Assembly (NCBI GenBank): GCA_965197475.1
Contig: CBDANF010000003.1
Span: 2,976,001 to 3,040,000 of the forward strand
Direction of reading: 5' to 3'
DNA length: 64,000 nucleotides
DNA from: Candidatus Poribacteria bacterium
Lineage (GTDB): Bacteria > Poribacteria > WGA-4E > WGA-3G
Below the pieces are notes generated by a model, which did no database searches, was not told the DNA's origin, and was given only the letters and a program-made list of their open reading frames with translations. Both the position numbers and the translations under genes were made by a program. Positions 4,082 to 20,207 of this stretch are shown here, one piece after another. Every line of letters starts with the position of its first letter. Position 1 is the first letter of the stretch.

Positions 4082-4660
4082 TTACTCAGTGAATGTGACG
4101 CGCTCGTATATTTCCTGCAAAGGCAATTCGCACTGAATTGCGGTAAGCGGAAGTTGCTGCTCAAGTTCTTGAAAAAAGGTATAAGTCCATTCATCCTGTT
4201 TGCGGAGGTAGCGTTCACCCTGTCCTGGGAAACAAGGATGTATTCTTTCAAGGATTGGAGCTGTAGATAATGTGATAATTTTTCACCTCTGTCATACGTT
4301 TCGGTTGTGGGAGAGAGCACCTCTACGATGACAATTGGGTTGAGAAGCGTGTCAAACTCATCATCTTCAAAGCGGGGTTCCTCACAGACAACAATATCAG
4401 GATAAAAGTAGCACTTTGCCGAGGGAATACTGACACGCATTTCGTTCATTAGGACTTCACACTTGCTACTTTTCAGTTTGCCGTGGAGTTCAGCAGCAAT
4501 ATTACCTGTAATAAGATTGTGTGCACGGTTAGAGCCGCCCATTCCAATTACTTTACCATTGAGATATTCACTTCTGACTGTGTTAGCGTCAGGGATTGCT
4601 TTACGTTCTAAAGTGATATTCTTCTGGTGTGAGGTATGTTTGTGCTGCCCTTGTTGCCAT
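4082..4660 (-). pseudogene. Uma2 (DUF820) family putative endonuclease, two frameshifts
   Basis: MATRAAQTYLTPEEY from ATG 4660 shifts into TLERKA...YPDIVV...VEVLSPTTETYDRGEK, then shifts again into ERYLRKQDEW...LQEIYERVTFTE* (stop 4082-4084). Confidence 0.75.
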
Positions 4661-5984: not shown

Positions 5985-6974
5985 TTACGACGAAGAGAGA
6001 TTTATGGTGTTGCGGACTTCGGTGATAATAGCATCCGGTTTAATACTCTCACCTTGTCCCTCAAAGTTGAGAAGAATGCGGTGACGGAGGGCAGGAAGAA
6101 GGACAGCGTCGATATCCGCGTAAGCAACGTTATAACGTTCATCAAGAAGTGCCTTGATTTTTGCGGTGAGGGTTATCGCTTGGATGCTACGGATACCCGC
6201 ACCAAGATGCACATAACGTTTGACAATCTCAGGTGCATCCGGCGAATCTGGATGCGTAGCACGAACAAGTCGGATGATGTGTCGTTCCACATGTTCTGCG
6301 ATGATAACCTGCGGGACAAGCTGCCGCATCTGGTTAAGTGTTTCGGCATCCGTGACTTTGTCAATTGTGATATTTGCGCCAGATGTAGTGCGCCGCAAAA
6401 TCTGGACTATCTCATCCTCATCAGGGAATTCTATGAGAAGTTTGAATAAAAACCTATCAAGTTGTGCCTCTGGAAGCGGGTATGTACCCTCCATCTCAAG
6501 CGGGTTTTGCGTGGCGAGAACACAAAAAGGCTCTTCTAATTTATGACTTGTCCGCCCAACCGTAACAGTGTGGTCCTGCATTGCTTCAAGAAGTGCTGAT
6601 TGGGTGCGCGGTGTCGCCCGATTAATCTCATCAGCGAGGATAAGTTGTGCGAAAATCGGACCTTGCTGAAATTCAAACTGCTTTCTGCCCTGTTCATCTT
6701 CAATGAGAAAGGTTGTACCGGTGATATCAGACGGCATCATATCCGGTGTGAAATGGATCGGTTTGAAAGTAAGGTTAAGTGCTTCGCTGAGTGTCCGGAT
6801 AAGTTGAGTTTTGCCTAAACCGGGTATACCTTCAAGCAGCGCGTGTCCATTCGCAAGTAGACAAAGAAGAACGCCTTCAACGATCGCATCTTGGCCGACA
6901 ATACGTTTTTGGATTTCAGTCTTGACGCGATAGAATGTCTCACGAAATTCTTGGATTTGGGTTTCTATATTCAT
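5985..6974 (-). CDS. moxR: MoxR family AAA+ ATPase
   Basis: LEGIPGLGKT, FTPDMMPSDITG, ILADEINRATPRTQSALLEAM and TYPLPEAQLDRF. Start taken at MNIETQ. Confidence 0.92.
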   Translation of the reverse strand: MNIETQIQEFRETFYRVKTEIQKRIVGQDAIVEGVLLCLLANGHALLEGIPGLGKTQLIRTLSEALNLTFKPIHFTPDMMPSDITGTTFLIEDEQGRKQFEFQQGPIFAQLILADEINRATPRTQSALLEAMQDHTVTVGRTSHKLEEPFCVLATQNPLEMEGTYPLPEAQLDRFLFKLLIEFPDEDEIVQILRRTTSGANITIDKVTDAETLNQMRQLVPQVIIAEHVERHIIRLVRATHPDSPDAPEIVKRYVHLGAGIRSIQAITLTAKIKALLDERYNVAYADIDAVLLPALRHRILLNFEGQGESIKPDAIITEVRNTINLSSS

Positions 6975-8918: not shown

Positions 8919-10007
8919 CTACGGTGTTACTGATTTCGCACAACGGAAACCAGTAAGATGGCTTGTGCGTGCTGGATCATTTCCACGTCGGTAAGTTATC
9001 CATACACGTGGTTGACCACTCTCGACCCATGAACCACCCCGTAATGCACGAGAAGATTTAATGTTCTTAAAATTATCTATAACCTCCTTAATACTATCGT
9101 CACCAGCAATCGGATTACTGTCCGGTGGATCTTCATAAAAATCTTTATCATACGCATCAAGACACCATTCCAATACGTTTCCAACCATATCATATAGACC
9201 ATACCCGTTAGTGGGATAATCCCCAACAGGCGTTGTACTACCGGTAACGCCAACATTCAAGGTGTAGTTCGCCTTGTTATCGTCAATTGAATTTCCCCAC
9301 GGATATTTTTGACCTTCTACACCACCACGTGCAGCTTTTTCCCATTCTGCCTCAGTCGGTAAACGCTTTTCTACCCATTCAGCATACGCAGCAGCTGCAT
9401 ACCAACTCACATAAATAACAGGATGGTCAGCTTTTTCGCTTGGATAAGTATTTCCAGACCAATTGACGAGATAATTTCCATCATGAAATTTGCTGTCAAT
9501 ATGCTCTTTTTGCCACTCAGGGTTGGCATCAACGAATTTTTTATATTGTATATTCGTTACCTCATATTTGTCGATATAGAACGCGTCAAGGTAGACCGGA
9601 TGTCCAGCTTGTTCAACATTTCCTGCTTGTCCGCTGATACTGCCTAACTGAAATTTTCCTTCAGGAATTAGTACCATGCCTTCAGGGGTTACGACATGGT
9701 CTTCTACAGTGAAAGTGAGTCTACGGCTCCCACCTTCCCAAGTGACTTCTACATCAAGCTTCCCTAATGTGAAGGGACCCGTAATAGTTACAATCTTATC
9801 AGATGTAGTTGATTTTCCTGGCGAAACAGTAAGATTTTGTGGAGTGCGATTAAAACTTACAGTAATAGTTGCGTCAGTGGATATAGTACTTCCATCGGAC
9901 GGATCCACAGATTGGATTTCTACCGAGTCATCTTCTCCACAGCCAATTATAGAGAAGGTAAAAATATATGCAAGAATTATTGCTAAAAAATATGATTTCT
10001 TTTTCAA
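8919..10007 (-). CDS. Lipoprotein with Ig-like region and FGE-sulfatase (SUMF1/EgtB/PvdO) domain
   Basis: Lipobox IIGC, RLPTEAEWEKAARGG, NGYGLYDMVGNVLEWC, RGGSW and GFRCA. Confidence 0.9.
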   Translation of the reverse strand: MKKKSYFLAIILAYIFTFSIIGCGEDDSVEIQSVDPSDGSTISTDATITVSFNRTPQNLTVSPGKSTTSDKIVTITGPFTLGKLDVEVTWEGGSRRLTFTVEDHVVTPEGMVLIPEGKFQLGSISGQAGNVEQAGHPVYLDAFYIDKYEVTNIQYKKFVDANPEWQKEHIDSKFHDGNYLVNWSGNTYPSEKADHPVIYVSWYAAAAYAEWVEKRLPTEAEWEKAARGGVEGQKYPWGNSIDDNKANYTLNVGVTGSTTPVGDYPTNGYGLYDMVGNVLEWCLDAYDKDFYEDPPDSNPIAGDDSIKEVIDNFKNIKSSRALRGGSWVESGQPRVWITYRRGNDPARTSHLTGFRCAKSVTP

Positions 10008-10175
10008 AATATTCTCCTTTCAAATATCAAAAGTAGAGCAATCGGACTTACAAAGCCCTCCTATAAGAAAAGGCGAATGTAGATAGCATTAGTCTGTATT
10101 AAACGCAATGAGTAGTTTTGGACTTGCAACAAGCCCCTGAATTTTTAATTTTTAACACCCTTTGCACCTTTTTCC

Positions 10176-10205
10176 TTGACAAACCCCTCTCAAATAACGT
10201 ATCCT
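10176..10205 (+). promoter_or_regulatory. Sigma70-like promoter
   Basis: TTGACA (10176-10181), N18, TATCCT (10200-10205), directly upstream of the structured element. Confidence 0.5.
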
Positions 10206-10212
10206 ATTAAAA

Positions 10213-10292
10213 TCATTCGTTGTCAGGGCTGTTAGTGCAACATACCTTATGTTGCACCCTGACACCACTTCTAACAGAGTGTAAACGAATGA
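10213..10292 (+). ncRNA. Candidate structured RNA (multi-stem, possible pseudoknot), family unknown
   Basis: Perfect complementary pairs: tcattcgtt/aacgaatga, gtcaggg/ccctgac, tgcaacata/tatgttgca and cact/agtg. Bulge ctgttag is also complementary to loop ctaacag. Confidence 0.5.
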
Positions 10293-10399
10293 CCGGATGA
10301 TACCCCGTTTAACGTATCAATTTTATATGCTTGAGCAGTGCATAACGCATTGCATGATACGCTATGCACCATTTTATCTCAAGCAAAGTGAGGTGCATT

Positions 10400-10531
10400 A
10401 TGGCTTTTAAAAAGCCTGTCATGCGGTATCGCAGTGCCATTACTGGTAGATACGTACGACCATGGGTAGCAAAACGCTATCCCAAAACGACGGTTAAAGA
10501 AACCGACAAACCTCGCAAGCGGTGTAAATAA
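10400..10531 (+). CDS. Small basic protein, 43 aa (MAFKKPVMRYRSAITGRYVRPWVAKRYPKTTVKETDKPRKRCK)
   Basis: Below the ORF-track cutoff. GAGGTG RBS just upstream of ATG 10400; followed by hairpins. Confidence 0.65.
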   Translation: MAFKKPVMRYRSAITGRYVRPWVAKRYPKTTVKETDKPRKRCK

Positions 10532-10544
10532 TCCGCTTGCATAC

Positions 10545-10571
10545 ATGTTAGGGGTCTTTGATCCCTAACAT
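10545..10571 (+). terminator. Hairpin after the small ORF
   Basis: atgttaggg / ccctaacat inverted repeat with no long U tract. Confidence 0.35.
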
Positions 10572-10601
10572 ACACATATTACCTCACTAAGGGAGCTTAA
10601 A

Positions 10602-11027
10602 ATGCACAGAAAAATTGGACCTGGTGGCGTTATCCTTAATCCTACAAACACACCTCCAGCATTGTCACGTCCAGATGAATTTAAAACCAACTGGAAACAA
10701 TTGTCGTTTTCATTCAAAGGTAGAATAAACCGAAAAGACTATTGGATATATTTCTTAGGTACTGGTTTATTATACATAACTTTTGGGGCATTTTTGATAT
10801 ATACAGTAGGTGAAATTGCGTATTACGCTTTTATGATACCAATTGGTTTCGTGAAATTCTTCTGGTGTGATAACGCTGTTACAGTGAAACGATTCCATGA
10901 TTTTGGTAGATCTGCTTGGTATCTTATCCCACTTTACATACCTCTGATTGGTATAGTCCTTTGGTTTATGTTTGCTTTCAGTAAAGGTGATCCCGAACCA
11001 AACAAGTATGGCGAACCGCCCAAATAA
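10602..11027 (+). CDS. DUF805 family membrane protein
   Basis: FSFKGRINRKDYW, VKRFHDFGRSAW and GDPEPNKYGEPP are DUF805 hallmarks. Confidence 0.88.
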   Translation: MHRKIGPGGVILNPTNTPPALSRPDEFKTNWKQLSFSFKGRINRKDYWIYFLGTGLLYITFGAFLIYTVGEIAYYAFMIPIGFVKFFWCDNAVTVKRFHDFGRSAWYLIPLYIPLIGIVLWFMFAFSKGDPEPNKYGEPPK

Positions 11028-11080
11028 CCCAACAACGAGGGGACCCTGTCCCCTCTAACCACAAAGGAGATTAAACCCAT

Positions 11081-11404
11081 GTGGGTAATACTGAAGAACC
11101 CCGTAAAGGACCCGAATTTGATCTTTTAGCAGTTCATCTTGAATCTTTTAACGCAATTGCTATATTCAACTTTGACAAAAAATACCATCTTGCCATGATT
11201 AAACATTTCGACGGTCATTTTTCGAATCACTCATATATGCATTGCGTTTTTGATGTATTTGACACGTACAAACAGGCTCAGGACTTCTTTCAAGAGATGG
11301 TAGAATCCCTAAAGACTGGCGAATCAGTATTTGATCTGCGTCCCCGCGCGGATTTGAACTCAGAGAAAAAGGAGAAAAAGGAGAAAAAGGGTGGTTATCT
11401 ATAG
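11081..11404 (+). CDS. Hypothetical protein
   Basis: AAGGAG RBS upstream, 107-aa ORF convergent with the transposase; start uncertain. Confidence 0.45.
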   Translation: MGNTEEPRKGPEFDLLAVHLESFNAIAIFNFDKKYHLAMIKHFDGHFSNHSYMHCVFDVFDTYKQAQDFFQEMVESLKTGESVFDLRPRADLNSEKKEKKEKKGGYL

Positions 11405-11407
11405 CAT

Positions 11408-12289
11408 TCATCTCATACTTTCATTGACAAACTTGACAAACAAGCTGTCAACGCTCCTATAGTTATACTTATAGCACGCTTCCGCCACATACAGCGGTGT
11501 GTATCCTGTCTGATAATGGTGATGCTGTCCATACCAAGCCCGTTTGAGTAGTGACCAGAACCCTTCAATCGTGTTTGTATGTGTATCACCATCAGCAAAC
11601 TGCACCTTGTGGTTGATAACAGCGTGCTTCATTTCTTTCCCAATAGCGTTGTAAGCCTGATATTCATCGGTTATTAGTTCCGAGTTTTTTAGGTTTACAG
11701 CACTCCGAATAAACTCAAGGATAGTGCGTCCTGTGAGGTTGTGTGCCACCTGTGCGACAACCCTACCCCCACGTTGCACTGCTCCTATTATAGCAGTTTT
11801 CTCCGTTCCTCTGCCACGTTTATGTGGTTCATCATCTTCACGTTTGTTCTTTTTACGAGATTTACCGCCAATATAGGTCTCATCTGCTTCAATGATACCT
11901 TGTAGTAAAGCCCCGCCTTTCTTTGCCATTTCAGCACGAATACGTGCCATCATAAACCATGCTGTCTTTTGATTCAAGTCTAAATCGCGCGCCAGTTGAT
12001 GACTTGACAAACTTTTCTTCGCATTCGTTATCAACGAAATAGCTAAAAACCACTTCTGTAACACTATCTTTGTCCCGTGAAACACCGACCTGCACGTCAC
12101 CTTGAAACTCACTTGGCACTCGTGGCAGTTCCACCGACCGATACGACCGATCTTTGTCTCCTCACGCCTGCCCACATGACCGCTTTCACAATGCGGACAC
12201 ACAGGTTTACCTCGCCACCGAATCTTCTCTAAATGCGAAATACAACTCTCTTGATCGGGGAAACGCTCCATCACCTTCAATAAATCCAT
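11408..12289 (-). mobile_element. IS1595-family transposase
   Basis: Zn ribbon CPHC...CHEC, DDE-type motifs IIEADETYIGG, LITDEY and HTNTIEGFWSLLKR. Start MDLLK with GGAG RBS. Element ends not resolved. Confidence 0.92.
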
Positions 12290-12458
12290 CAGATAACTCC
12301 TTGAAATAGGAGTTGCTTTTTCTGACGGATTTCTGATATAATACCAGATAAGATTAGAACCTTCAGAAAGCAACTCTGCTTTTTGGGTTAATTGGGAGGC
12401 TACAACCTCCCTTTTTCTTATCTATATTATACCATATAAACCCAGTCTACACAAGGCT

Positions 12459-13271
12459 TTATAGCGATTTTTTAAAATTTTTCTCAAGTCCAAAACTACT
12501 CATTGCGGTATTAAATACCTGTTGCATTTCTACCTTTAACGTCTCAAACAATTCGCCTTTCAGACTGATTAGTTCCCTATCAGTGATGCTTCTAGGACGC
12601 GGTAACGGCACATCAACTTCCGCTTTTATTGATGCGGGTCTGGCAGTTAAGACATATATCTTATCAGCAAGCAGAAGTGCTTCCTCAATATCGTGGGTTA
12701 TCAACAGGACAGTCTGACCGCCTTTGTCCCAAATATCTAAAAGAATAGATTGCATCACAGTGCGGGTCATTGCATCCAATGCACCAAAAGGTTCATCCAA
12801 AAGCAGAATCTCTTTTCGGAAAAGGAGCGTCCTGACCAAAGCAACGCGTTGTCGCATCCCACCCGAAAGCTGCATCGGGTAACTATTTGAAAACCCCTGC
12901 AAACCGAGCTGCTCCAATAGTTTTTGTGCTTCCGTTTTTGCTGAACCAAACGATTCCTTCTGTATTTCTGGGCCGATGAGTACGTTCTTTAAGACTGTTC
13001 GCCAAGGGAGAAGGAGGTCCTTCTGTTGCATATACCCGAACGCGCCTGTATTACCTTGGATACGTTTCCCGTTGAGATAAATTTCCCCGGATTGCGGTGC
13101 GAGAAGTCCTGAGATAATATTGAACAACGTACTCTTACCGCATCCAGAGGGACCAAGCAATGCCACAAACTGCCCAGTATTCACTGAAAAGTTTAACTCG
13201 TTCAGTACTGACAGTTGTTTGTTGCTTTGAACGAATGCGTGTGTTAAATTCAGAACTTCAAGTTTTGTCAT
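12459..13271 (-). CDS. NitT/TauT-type ABC transporter ATP-binding protein
   Basis: GPSGCGKS, LSGGMRQRVAL, LLLDEPFGALDAMTR and ITHDIEEA. Confidence 0.9.
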   Translation of the reverse strand: MTKLEVLNLTHAFVQSNKQLSVLNELNFSVNTGQFVALLGPSGCGKSTLFNIISGLLAPQSGEIYLNGKRIQGNTGAFGYMQQKDLLLPWRTVLKNVLIGPEIQKESFGSAKTEAQKLLEQLGLQGFSNSYPMQLSGGMRQRVALVRTLLFRKEILLLDEPFGALDAMTRTVMQSILLDIWDKGGQTVLLITHDIEEALLLADKIYVLTARPASIKAEVDVPLPRPRSITDRELISLKGELFETLKVEMQQVFNTAMSSFGLEKNFKKSL

Positions 13272-19964: not shown

Positions 19965-20038
19965 TGGGCGGTACAGGACTTGAACCTGTGACCTCTTGCA
20001 TGTCAAGCAAACGCTCTAGCCACCTGAGCTAACCGCCC
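19965..20038 (-). tRNA. tRNA-Val(GAC)
   Basis: GGGCGGTTAGCTCAG...TT GAC AT...GGTTCAAGTCC...CCGCCCA; CCA not encoded. Confidence 0.95.
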
Positions 20039-20053
20039 ATATATAGAAGGGTA

Positions 20054-20128
20054 TGGAGGTGGCGGTCGGAATCGAACCGACGAATAAGAGTTTTGCAGAC
20101 TCGTGCCTTACCACTTGGCTACGCCACC
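20054..20128 (-). tRNA. tRNA-Cys(GCA)
   Basis: GGTGGCGTAGCCAAGTGGTAAGGC...CT GCA AA...GGTTCGATTCC...CCA. Confidence 0.95.
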
Positions 20129-20132
20129 GAAA

Positions 20133-20207
20133 TGGAGCGGGAGACGAGATTTGAACTCGCGACCTCCACCTTGGCAAGGTGGAGCTCTACCACTGAGCTA
20201 CTCCCGC
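20133..20207 (-). tRNA. tRNA-Gly(GCC)
   Basis: GCGGGAGTAGCTCAGTGGTAGAGC...TT GCC AA...GTTCAAATC...CCA. Confidence 0.95.

Follow-up and report, generated by a model that had tools for sequence, protein, structure and literature searches.

What is a compact, pseudoknot-like RNA doing at a predicted transcription start, just upstream of a gene for a 43-amino-acid (aa) basic protein? The locus lies in a 64,000-nucleotide (nt) stretch of a Candidatus Poribacteria genome (assembly GCA_965197475.1, contig CBDANF010000003.1, positions 2,976,001 to 3,040,000), here called the window, and was first read from its letters as a possible regulatory leader, RNA antitoxin or mobile-element-associated non-coding RNA, a reading that we refer to as the original prediction. 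Comparison with homologues indicates that the 80-nt element at 10213-10292 is the core of a real, conserved pseudoknotted RNA domain, and that promoter and fold together are a portable cassette, found at the ends of IS1595-family insertion sequences (ISs), before a TnpB gene, before accessory and defence-like genes, and sometimes facing convergent genes. What the fold does for the transcript that it would begin can be answered more tentatively. The parts of the leader region are as follows.

10176..10205, plus strand: sigma-70-like promoter, TTGACA-N18-TATCCT, a 10/12 match directed into the element
10213..10292, plus strand: core RNA fold, a three-way junction (P1-P4) with a kissing pseudoknot (10229-35/10271-77), from the letters, RNAfold and covariation
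10294..10301, plus strand: X'2, a second copy of the P1 3′ strand (cggatgat), which may pair with 10212-10219 as helix P1′ and recurs with other sequence in other subfamilies
10299..10318, plus strand: small hairpin gatac/gtatc with the conserved loop (CC)CGTTTAAC, from the family alignment
10329..10384, plus strand: second leader module, an outer stem gcttgag/ctcaagc around gtgcata/tatgcac
10400..10531, plus strand: gene for the 43-aa basic protein, with conserved homologues and the Shine-Dalgarno sequence GAGG at 10390-10393

The four helices of the original prediction can be read directly from the window. P1 pairs tcattcgtt (10213-10221) with aacgaatga (10284-10292), P2 pairs gtcaggg (10222-10228) with ccctgac (10257-10263), P3 pairs tgcaacata (10236-10244) with tatgttgca (10248-10256), and P4 pairs cact (10266-10269) with agtg (10278-10281). 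The bulge ctgttag (10229-10235) and the P4 loop ctaacag (10271-10277) are exact reverse complements of each other, as had been proposed, and with this pairing included 72 of the 80 bases are paired. RNAfold, given none of these pairings, recovers P1-P4 as both the minimum free energy and the centroid structure, at -33.4 kcal/mol compared with -17.87 ± 2.96 for shuffled sequences (z -5.25; 0/200 shuffles fold as well). The opposite strand folds about equally (z -4.97), and energy alone therefore cannot assign the strand. Downstream of the core, the hairpin at 10299-10318 has the compensatory variants TAATC/GATTA and CAATA/TATTG, judged by eye with no formal count. The further stem of the original prediction, gtgcata (10338-10344) with tatgcac (10363-10369), is present and is enclosed by an outer stem, gcttgag (10329-10335) with ctcaagc (10378-10384), that also appears by eye to covary (GAG/CTC, GGCA/TGCC, GCCA/TGGC). 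This second module occurs in 13 family members, the window included, and its end at 10384 is 5 nt upstream of the Shine-Dalgarno sequence.

Homologues preserve this fold while changing its letters. The genome has ten more copies, which match over part of the region at 82% identity and keep all helices by compensatory changes, with the bulge and loop going together from ctgttag/ctaacag to tttctat/atagaaa. A DNA search within the taxonomic order supplied more relatives, and in the resulting 10-sequence alignment (A2) 97.3% of 339 cells are paired and 17/34 pairs have changed on both sides, which none of 500 shuffles equals. A covariance model built without the pseudoknot (R1), whose match in the window spans 10206-10328 (124.6 bits), then aligned 35 distinct sequences (A3), in which 96.4% of 1152 cells are paired and both partners have changed in 29 of 33 pairs; when the partners are offset by 1-3 columns, pairing falls to 34-43%. 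Since the nested helices of A3 are model-fitted and the sequences are related, the shuffle counts are not probabilities. The bulge-loop pseudoknot, which is absent from R1, is 97.6% paired in A3 and 6 of its 7 pairs covary across the 35 sequences, so that the homologues compensate at this contact as well as in the nested helices. RNAalifold predicts the same nested helices, with 23/26 pairs compensated. G-U cells greatly outnumber A-C cells in the alignment (76 vs. 17), which fits an RNA transcribed from the plus strand, that of the promoter.

No described RNA class accounts for the fold. With the 4227 models of Rfam 15 at gathering scores, the only matches in the window are three tRNA genes clustered at 19965-20207 on the minus strand; at E ≤ 10 nothing on 10000-10700 overlaps 10206-10328, and at E ≤ 1 the loci of 20 members gave one unrelated sub-threshold match. 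The original prediction, which recognised no known riboswitch or ribozyme here, thus agrees with the scan. Rfam holds a motif named Poribacteria-1; no Rfam model matched the tested members. A literature search on Poribacteria RNA motifs or insertion sequences and on IS1595 non-coding RNA found no description, subscription journals and supplements being outside its reach. Two further classes were tried and do not fit. A tRNA-like reading, with the 7-bp P1 as acceptor stem, finds no conserved CCA-like tail after P1. An IS guide RNA of the bridge or omega kind is at odds with a bulge and a loop that complement each other, with a DDE transposase of the IS1595 type, and with a TnpB copy that lies 5′ of its gene.

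The family is large. R1 finds 11 copies in the window's own genome and matches in 42/151 genomes of the order and 40/151 of a phylum sample, while a broader covariance model (R2) finds 21 copies in the own genome and, at E ≤ 1e-4, about 515 matches (150 listed and 365 unlisted) in 94/151 phylum genomes. By family, R2 matches 84/99 genomes in f1, 8/26 in f3, 1/10 in f2 and 0/15 in six other families. These genome counts are lower bounds, because R2 missed eight type C plus type D copies of the own genome that the descriptor introduced below detects, and the genome search scored only part of the candidates. An IUPAC pattern derived from the RNA was searched in a collection of 185,579 species, where 21/21 matching stretches are titled Candidatus Poribacteria; it also matched two metagenome contigs and one viral contig. 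Without its first G the pattern matches just 15/35 known members, and restriction to Poribacteria is thus a statement of lower sensitivity. The matches point to a large structured-RNA family in Poribacteria that is apparently undescribed.

The architecture also recurs without the sequence. Four further IS1595 variants of the genome carry the same design at their left ends, with unrelated P1, P3 and pseudoknot sequences; common to all are the promoter, P1, a GGTAGGG-like P2, the 7-nt bulge, P3, and P4 with a loop complementary to the bulge. Out of 41,146 candidate kisses in the 5.7-Mb genome, a strict descriptor written for this design (an exact 7-nt kiss and four helices) retains 28 instances (8 distinct); the reversed genome gives 2 and a block-shuffled genome 0. 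Of these instances 25 are at IS1595 ends and three elsewhere, one of the latter lying 8 nt before the ATG of a 401-aa TnpB (OrfB_IS605, 1.9e-22; Cas12f1-like TNB, 1.1e-17). R1 with its filters off scores the design variants weakly (13-34 bits) and adds two, L015:1750 and L074:1958.

Some of these variants have surroundings of their own. Locus L103 (G000:C3:2858500-2866500) has two copies of a leader variant on the minus strand, 2.7 kb apart (L103:3551-3673 and 6304-6426). One precedes the TnpB gene, whose ATG follows P1 by 8 nt with no Shine-Dalgarno sequence; the other is followed by an identical first 45 nt of tnpB and then by unrelated sequence. About 60 nt upstream of each copy is a hairpin with a 17-bp stem around CGCCTTTTAAGGCGG, the core motif of which has three matches in the genome. 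In a diverged subfamily (L077, L078 and L088:~4440-4500), a short covarying hairpin with the centre GCTTTAGC stands about 40 nt upstream of the promoter in the forms cccactgctttagctgtggg, ccattgctttagcattgg and ccgttgctttagcacgg; it may be a terminator or an element end.

Where would the transcript begin? The TTGACA-N18-TATCCT sequence stands at 10176-10205 as originally described, and P1 starts at the 8th base past it (10213). Promoter-like sites near the locus are at chance level, with 8 in 2.6 kb compared with 6.6 ± 2.5 in shuffles, so that what counts is not the site alone but its conservation among homologues. A sigma-70 match of at least 9/12 lies upstream of the fold in 38/43 family rows, and in 29 of the 43 P1 starts exactly 8 nt past the end of the -10 hexamer. 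At the usual start distance, the 8-nt spacing predicts a transcript with just 1-2 unpaired 5′ nucleotides before P1. The helix would thus lie within a few nucleotides of the predicted 5′ end, as expected of a 5′-terminal stabiliser. A structured RNA in this promoter-proximal position is also in the place of a put or EAR antiterminator, with which it would share action in cis. Four sponge metatranscriptome runs share small fractions of the sequence words (0.06-0.19) and consist of assembled contigs only; contigs at 90% likeness cover IS relatives, including parts of 10220-10405, with starts, ends, strand and level unreadable. DNA may have been carried over into these contigs, one of which begins before the predicted start and runs past it. 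For these reasons we draw nothing about transcription from them.

The first reading missed two features, the IS1595 setting, described below, and a duplication of the P1 3′ strand, X'2. The best complement to the P1 5′ strand begins 0-3 nt after P1 in 33/41 sequences; the run is at least 6 in 31/41 and individually significant (p ≤ 0.05) in only 8/41. X'2 changes with the 5′ strand, being cggatgat in the window, tcaagg in L073, acgagat in L025 and gaattcgtg in type C, and further states are acaacgtg in type E, gtattgtg at L015:1750 and gacgg at L074:1958. It is weak or absent in the TnpB-type, C3:1899146 and L077/L078 variants, and in L073 a third copy of the strand overlaps the Shine-Dalgarno region. 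In A3, P1′ is 90.9% paired, with one column pair split CG:14/UA:13. The duplication implies an alternative helix, P1′. Forced folding of 20 rows with ViennaRNA makes P1 more stable than P1′ in all 20, by 0.7-6.3 kcal/mol. Among the 16 rows whose start codon is valid (the four with a misplaced one being excluded), forcing one or the other changes the accessibility of the ribosome binding site (RBS) by anything from -0.19 to +0.13, in no consistent direction, and this lends no support to a translational switch via P1/P1′. Two other pairings were set aside: a helix of X'2 with the CGTTT loop, which would form an H-type pseudoknot on the gatac/gtatc hairpin, is plausible by eye and its register differs among members, and a GATAC duplicate in the second module, considered as a relay, is not kept in L025, L019 or L010.

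What does the leader serve? An IS1595 repeat is found within 160 nt upstream in just 10/35 distinct main-family sequences, and none in 25/35. The genes downstream are heterogeneous and include the 43-aa protein with membrane proteins, DUF805, AlbA_2/Schlafen, HSDR_N_2, FRG plus TPR, TnpB and unknowns; 6/10 downstream genes tested have no Pfam family. Among 36 contexts, 23 lack a convergent gene and have, within 300 nt, a co-directional open reading frame (ORF) that is 50 aa or longer; in seven, the end of a convergent gene 150 aa or longer lies within 400 nt; and six have neither. The seven convergent genes encode an IS1595 transposase (three), a phage lysozyme (two; PF00959), a DUF2851 protein (one) and a terminase large subunit (one). 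On a 68-kb viral contig (L102), the promoter and leader (4124-4245, minus strand) point into the 3′ end of a terminase large-subunit gene (phrog_2, 9.6e-16) and adjoin a GIY-YIG/NUMOD3 homing-endonuclease gene. At L015:205-235, a second IS1595-type inverted repeat starts 15 nt after a leader copy, which suggests a nested or tandem insertion there. The suspected association with mobile elements is in this way borne out by IS1595 ends, a TnpB gene and a viral contig, and the identity of the RNA as a 5′ leader of mobile and accessory genes is, on sequence comparison, well supported.

The small ORF with its RBS is as first described (ATG at 10400, stop at 10529-10531, GAGG at 10390-10393), and its protein is conserved. 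Eight close homologues keep RYRSAITGRYV..YPKTTVKE, at E ≤ 0.001 a profile search reaches 921 representative clusters, 55 of them with E no higher than 1e-10, and many relatives carry the motif twice in tandem. The protein matches no Pfam or NCBIfam model. Among eight scanned relatives, six have no Pfam family, and the other two have only weak matches (PF01899 MNHE, below cut-off; PF06056 Terminase_5), which lie outside the motif-matching stretch. Judged by its conservation, the ORF is a real gene of a widespread unnamed small-protein family and one cargo among many. As a partner of the RNA the peptide did not hold up, because most family members have other downstream genes. The structured RNA at a predicted transcription start is supported, its tie to the 43-aa peptide being incidental. 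The RNA antitoxin is not supported: neither tandem repeats nor a toxin gene in antisense overlap is present, and what follows the fold is either an unrelated gene or no gene. A type I or III toxin-antitoxin RNA also does not fit its single copy per locus or a downstream peptide that is basic, hydrophilic and absent from most members.

In the window, the fold sits just after the inward-facing promoter of a complete 2409-bp (2.4-kb) IS1595-family element (10103-12511), which has inverted repeats of 23-25 bp and a target duplication of 8 bp and carries three passenger ORFs. Within the repeats the order is promoter, RNA, 43-aa gene, DUF805 gene, conserved spacer, ~100-aa ORF and opposite-strand transposase. 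Its features beyond the leader are listed below.

10095..10102, no strand: left target-site duplication copy GTATTAAA, 8 bp; the same 8 bases flank both inverted repeats
10103..10127, plus strand: left terminal inverted repeat cgcaatgagtagttttggacttg, reverse complement at 12487-12511; homology to other copies begins here
10602..11027, plus strand: DUF805 membrane protein gene, a passenger (PF05656, E 4.8e-22)
11037..11055, plus strand: conserved spacer hairpin gaggggac/gtcccctc within the 70-bp block 11025-11096, from identity across variants
11079..11404, plus strand: passenger ORF of ~100 aa, frameshifted in this copy, from the reading frames
11408..12373, minus strand: IS1595-family transposase gene, convergent with the leader transcript, from domain matches
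12487..12511, minus strand: right terminal inverted repeat
12512..12519, no strand: right target-site duplication copy GTATTAAA

The transposase has an N-terminal zinc ribbon (Zn_ribbon_IS1595, PF12760, 4.1e-09) and a DDE_Tnp_IS1595 domain (PF12762, 9.7e-37), and it matches NF033547 at 1.1e-55 (188.8 bits, cut-off 75). With these domains, the inverted repeats, the 8-bp duplication and multiple copies, the host element belongs to the IS1595 family. Diverged IS1595 variants are numerous in the genome (5.7 Mb, 3 contigs), which has 74 matches to the inverted-repeat motif, and several of these variants swap cargo between conserved end and spacer blocks. The 70-bp block 11025-11096, which contains the GC-rich 8-bp hairpin as well as the Shine-Dalgarno sequence for the ORF that follows, is 91-93% identical among IS variants whose transposases share only 74-83% identity; a regular expression for its hairpin has 11 matches in the genome, and the block may be a processing or recombination joint between cargo modules. 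In the ~100-aa passenger, ATG 11079 yields MWVILKNPVKDPNLIF (16 codons) and then a stop, with the remainder in the next frame from 11081, while a multi-copy variant reads MWVIFKPPSDPVDF... in a single frame. This protein matches no Pfam family, and relatives with the motif HFDGxxSN directly follow the leader elsewhere, for example in L068 and L103. Two hairpins (10516-10539 and 10545-10571) lie between the 43-aa and DUF805 genes with no T-run after them; the second (atgttaggg/ccctaacat) is compensated in the multi-copy variant as atgtaggggg/ccccctacat.

How might such a cassette work? The reading that we favour, possible rather than probable, is a portable cassette of promoter and 5′-terminal fold in which the fold works in cis on the transcript that carries it, the simplest way being to bury the 5′ end. 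A strong sigma-70-type promoter would start the transcript at or near P1, and the 5′-terminal nucleotides would be locked in P1 of a compact three-way junction held by the 7-bp kiss. The locked end would be hidden from 5′-end-dependent decay (RNase J, RNase E/G, pyrophosphohydrolase), and each downstream cargo, whether mRNA or antisense RNA, would gain the same protected, self-folding start. RNase J (569 bits, cut-off 400) and RNase E/G are encoded in the genome. This reading fits most of the facts, namely the 5′-terminal position, near-total pairing, indifference to cargo and carriage by mobile elements. The fold, its covariation, strand, place beside the promoter and distribution can be taken from the alignments and searches; to them we add what we infer, transcription from that promoter and a stabilising or insulating mechanism.

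Several observations weigh against 5′ protection. The 5′ end is predicted, not mapped, the RNA data being assembled contigs only, and the constant spacing between promoter and P1 could be due in part to shared descent of the cassette. The relatedness of the sequences means that the shuffle controls overstate significance. In the TnpB copy the fold abuts a start codon that has no Shine-Dalgarno sequence, which looks like translational repression and not protection. A plain hairpin would suffice to protect a 5′ end, and both the conserved pseudoknot and the recurrent X'2, whose alternative helix P1′ protection leaves unexplained, go beyond that; they suggest some narrower function, for instance contact with a partner or with RNA polymerase, or switching.

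Polymerase binding is at the centre of the alternative that survives best, one that we nonetheless consider unlikely. Here the leader would be a protein-free processive antiterminator, like the HK022 put RNA or EAR, that binds its own polymerase and carries it past Rho-dependent and intrinsic terminators, over cargo genes or antisense regions that are not translated. According to one report, put RNAs are ~70 nt long with two stem-loops, lie just downstream of PL and act alone in cis (PMC9378689), and another describes RNA antiterminators in other mobile elements (PMC11658703). The Poribacteria RNA offers the same promoter-proximal position, ~80 nt in two arms, carriage by mobile elements and phage, and an irrelevant downstream gene, and in 7/36 contexts it would yield long untranslated antisense RNA, natural prey of Rho. 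It has no sequence or Rfam similarity to known elements, and the put RNA, as described in the first report, is without a kissing pseudoknot or closing helix (PMC9378689). Nor is there a plus-strand terminator-like site between 10300 and 12290 in the window for it to overcome. Antitermination also leaves the 5′-terminal placement of P1 unexplained, since putR is there reported to function 270 nt from its start (PMC9378689).

Somewhat lower still we place a riboswitch-like or protein-responsive switch that senses a ligand, ion, temperature or protein through mutually exclusive P1 (X:X'1) and P1′ (X:X'2). The adjacency of X'2 to P1, its covariation with the 5′ strand in independent states, the pairing of P1′ in the main family and the third L073 strand copy all speak for it, and three-way junctions with long-range loop contacts are typical of aptamers. 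Yet a ligand-pocket signature was looked for and not found: the strands at the junction vary and are 0-3 nt long, the pseudoknot takes up the whole 7-nt bulge, and no unpaired nucleotides are conserved for a pocket. The downstream genes (DUF805, AlbA_2, HSDR_N_2, FRG+TPR, TnpB or none) share no function or single pathway of the kind expected for a riboswitch, and several copies have no downstream ORF. The forced folds with their inconsistent RBS effect and their uniform preference for P1, the few individually significant X'2 matches, and the variants in which X'2 is weak or absent count against a switch as well.

Quite improbable is an IS small RNA, acting in trans or as a cis-antisense, that would have the structured 5′ domain as its stable body and silence the convergent transposase in the manner of IS10 RNA-OUT. 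The window and short IS derivatives do direct the leader toward the transposase 3′ end (in L015 the gene ends 30 nt after the RNA), and a phage terminase gene faces the leader likewise. Most contexts are of another kind, however, with 23/36 co-directional and free of convergent genes and 25/35 sequences lacking the upstream IS1595 repeat; the transposase of L057 is co-directional with the RNA, and no terminator follows the fold. We give very little weight to a self-cleaving ribozyme that trims the 5′ leader like twister, pistol, hammerhead or hatchet. Its compactness, pseudoknot and mobile-element context would suit one, and a hairpin loop pairs with an internal loop as in pistol, but no Rfam ribozyme matches even at E ≤ 10. 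A conserved catalytic core such as those of hammerhead, twister, pistol, hatchet or hepatitis delta virus (HDV)-like ribozymes is missing from the variable 0-3-nt junctions and the loops, which have no conserved unpaired positions, and the helix order is by inspection unlike that of pistol, twister or HDV-like folds. A DNA-level signal (a transposase or recombinase site, or single-stranded DNA structure) or a chance palindrome, for which one could cite the position 85 bp inside the IS end and the equal folding of both strands, was disfavoured already and is hardly credible given the G-U excess over A-C (76 vs. 17), occurrence away from IS ends, a covarying pseudoknot and promoter spacing that indicate RNA, and descriptor controls of 0-2 compared with 28.

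Whichever reading prevails, this is a large RNA family absent from Rfam with unusually clean support for a tertiary contact, and a module of promoter and folded 5′ end apparently common to ISs, a TnpB element, a phage and defence-like genes of uncultured sponge symbionts. The duplicated closing strand is a testable structural puzzle, and annotators of Poribacteria genomes can use the family as a marker of transcription starts and mobile-element ends. If 5′ protection or polymerase modification is true, it would show how mobile DNA secures its expression in a poorly known phylum, and a compact self-folding insulator part for synthetic biology might be possible. These two readings can be pushed further, into more doubtful territory, to a 5′ "cap" RNA of a new functional class that mobile elements have spread, either a decay resister like the flaviviral exoribonuclease-resistant RNA (xrRNA) or a put-like polymerase reprogrammer, with P1/P1′ as its toggle. 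If true, it would possibly be the first bacterial pseudoknot that mechanically resists 5′-end-dependent decay, a counterpart of the xrRNA, and in either form Poribacteria ISs, TnpB elements and phages would be using it to force their cargo, or antisense RNA directed at their own transposase or packaging genes, to be expressed.

Comparison with known systems places the RNA among several. Simple 5′-terminal stem-loops, such as that of the ompA leader, stabilise mRNA only if they lie no more than a few nucleotides from its 5′ end, and the Poribacteria leader appears to resemble these stabilisers in having a helix near the predicted 5′ end, a probable action in cis and indifference to the downstream gene. 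It differs from such hairpins in being a three-way junction with 72/80 bases paired, a covarying 7-bp kiss and a duplicated closing strand. With flaviviral xrRNA it seems to share a compact three-way junction locked by a pseudoknot and a possible link to 5′-to-3′ decay. The xrRNA, in contrast, is internal to its transcript and threads the 5′ strand through a ring, while here the fold would be the 5′ end itself, the likeness being drawn with no 3D comparison. As a structured RNA in a non-coding IS end it recalls IS10 RNA-OUT, the IS110 bridge RNA and the omega RNA of TnpB/IscB, unlike which its bulge and loop pair with each other, its host is a DDE element of the IS1595 family, its TnpB copy lies 5′ of tnpB, and most of its distinct copies are outside IS1595 ends. 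Purine and THF-I riboswitches likewise have a three-way junction closed by P1, arms tied at long range and an alternative partner for a P1 strand, but unlike these aptamers the Poribacteria RNA has no conserved junction nucleotides, consistent gene association or predicted RBS effect. The put RNA of HK022 is V-shaped, with two stem-loops and a triplex, and has neither a closing P1 nor a bulge-loop kiss, and there is no sequence similarity between the two (PMC9378689). For all that, the Poribacteria RNA is like put and the mobile-element antiterminators in being a two-arm structured RNA of ~70-80 nt just past a mobile-element promoter (PMC9378689; PMC11658703), and like put it would act in cis and without regard to the cargo that follows (PMC9378689).

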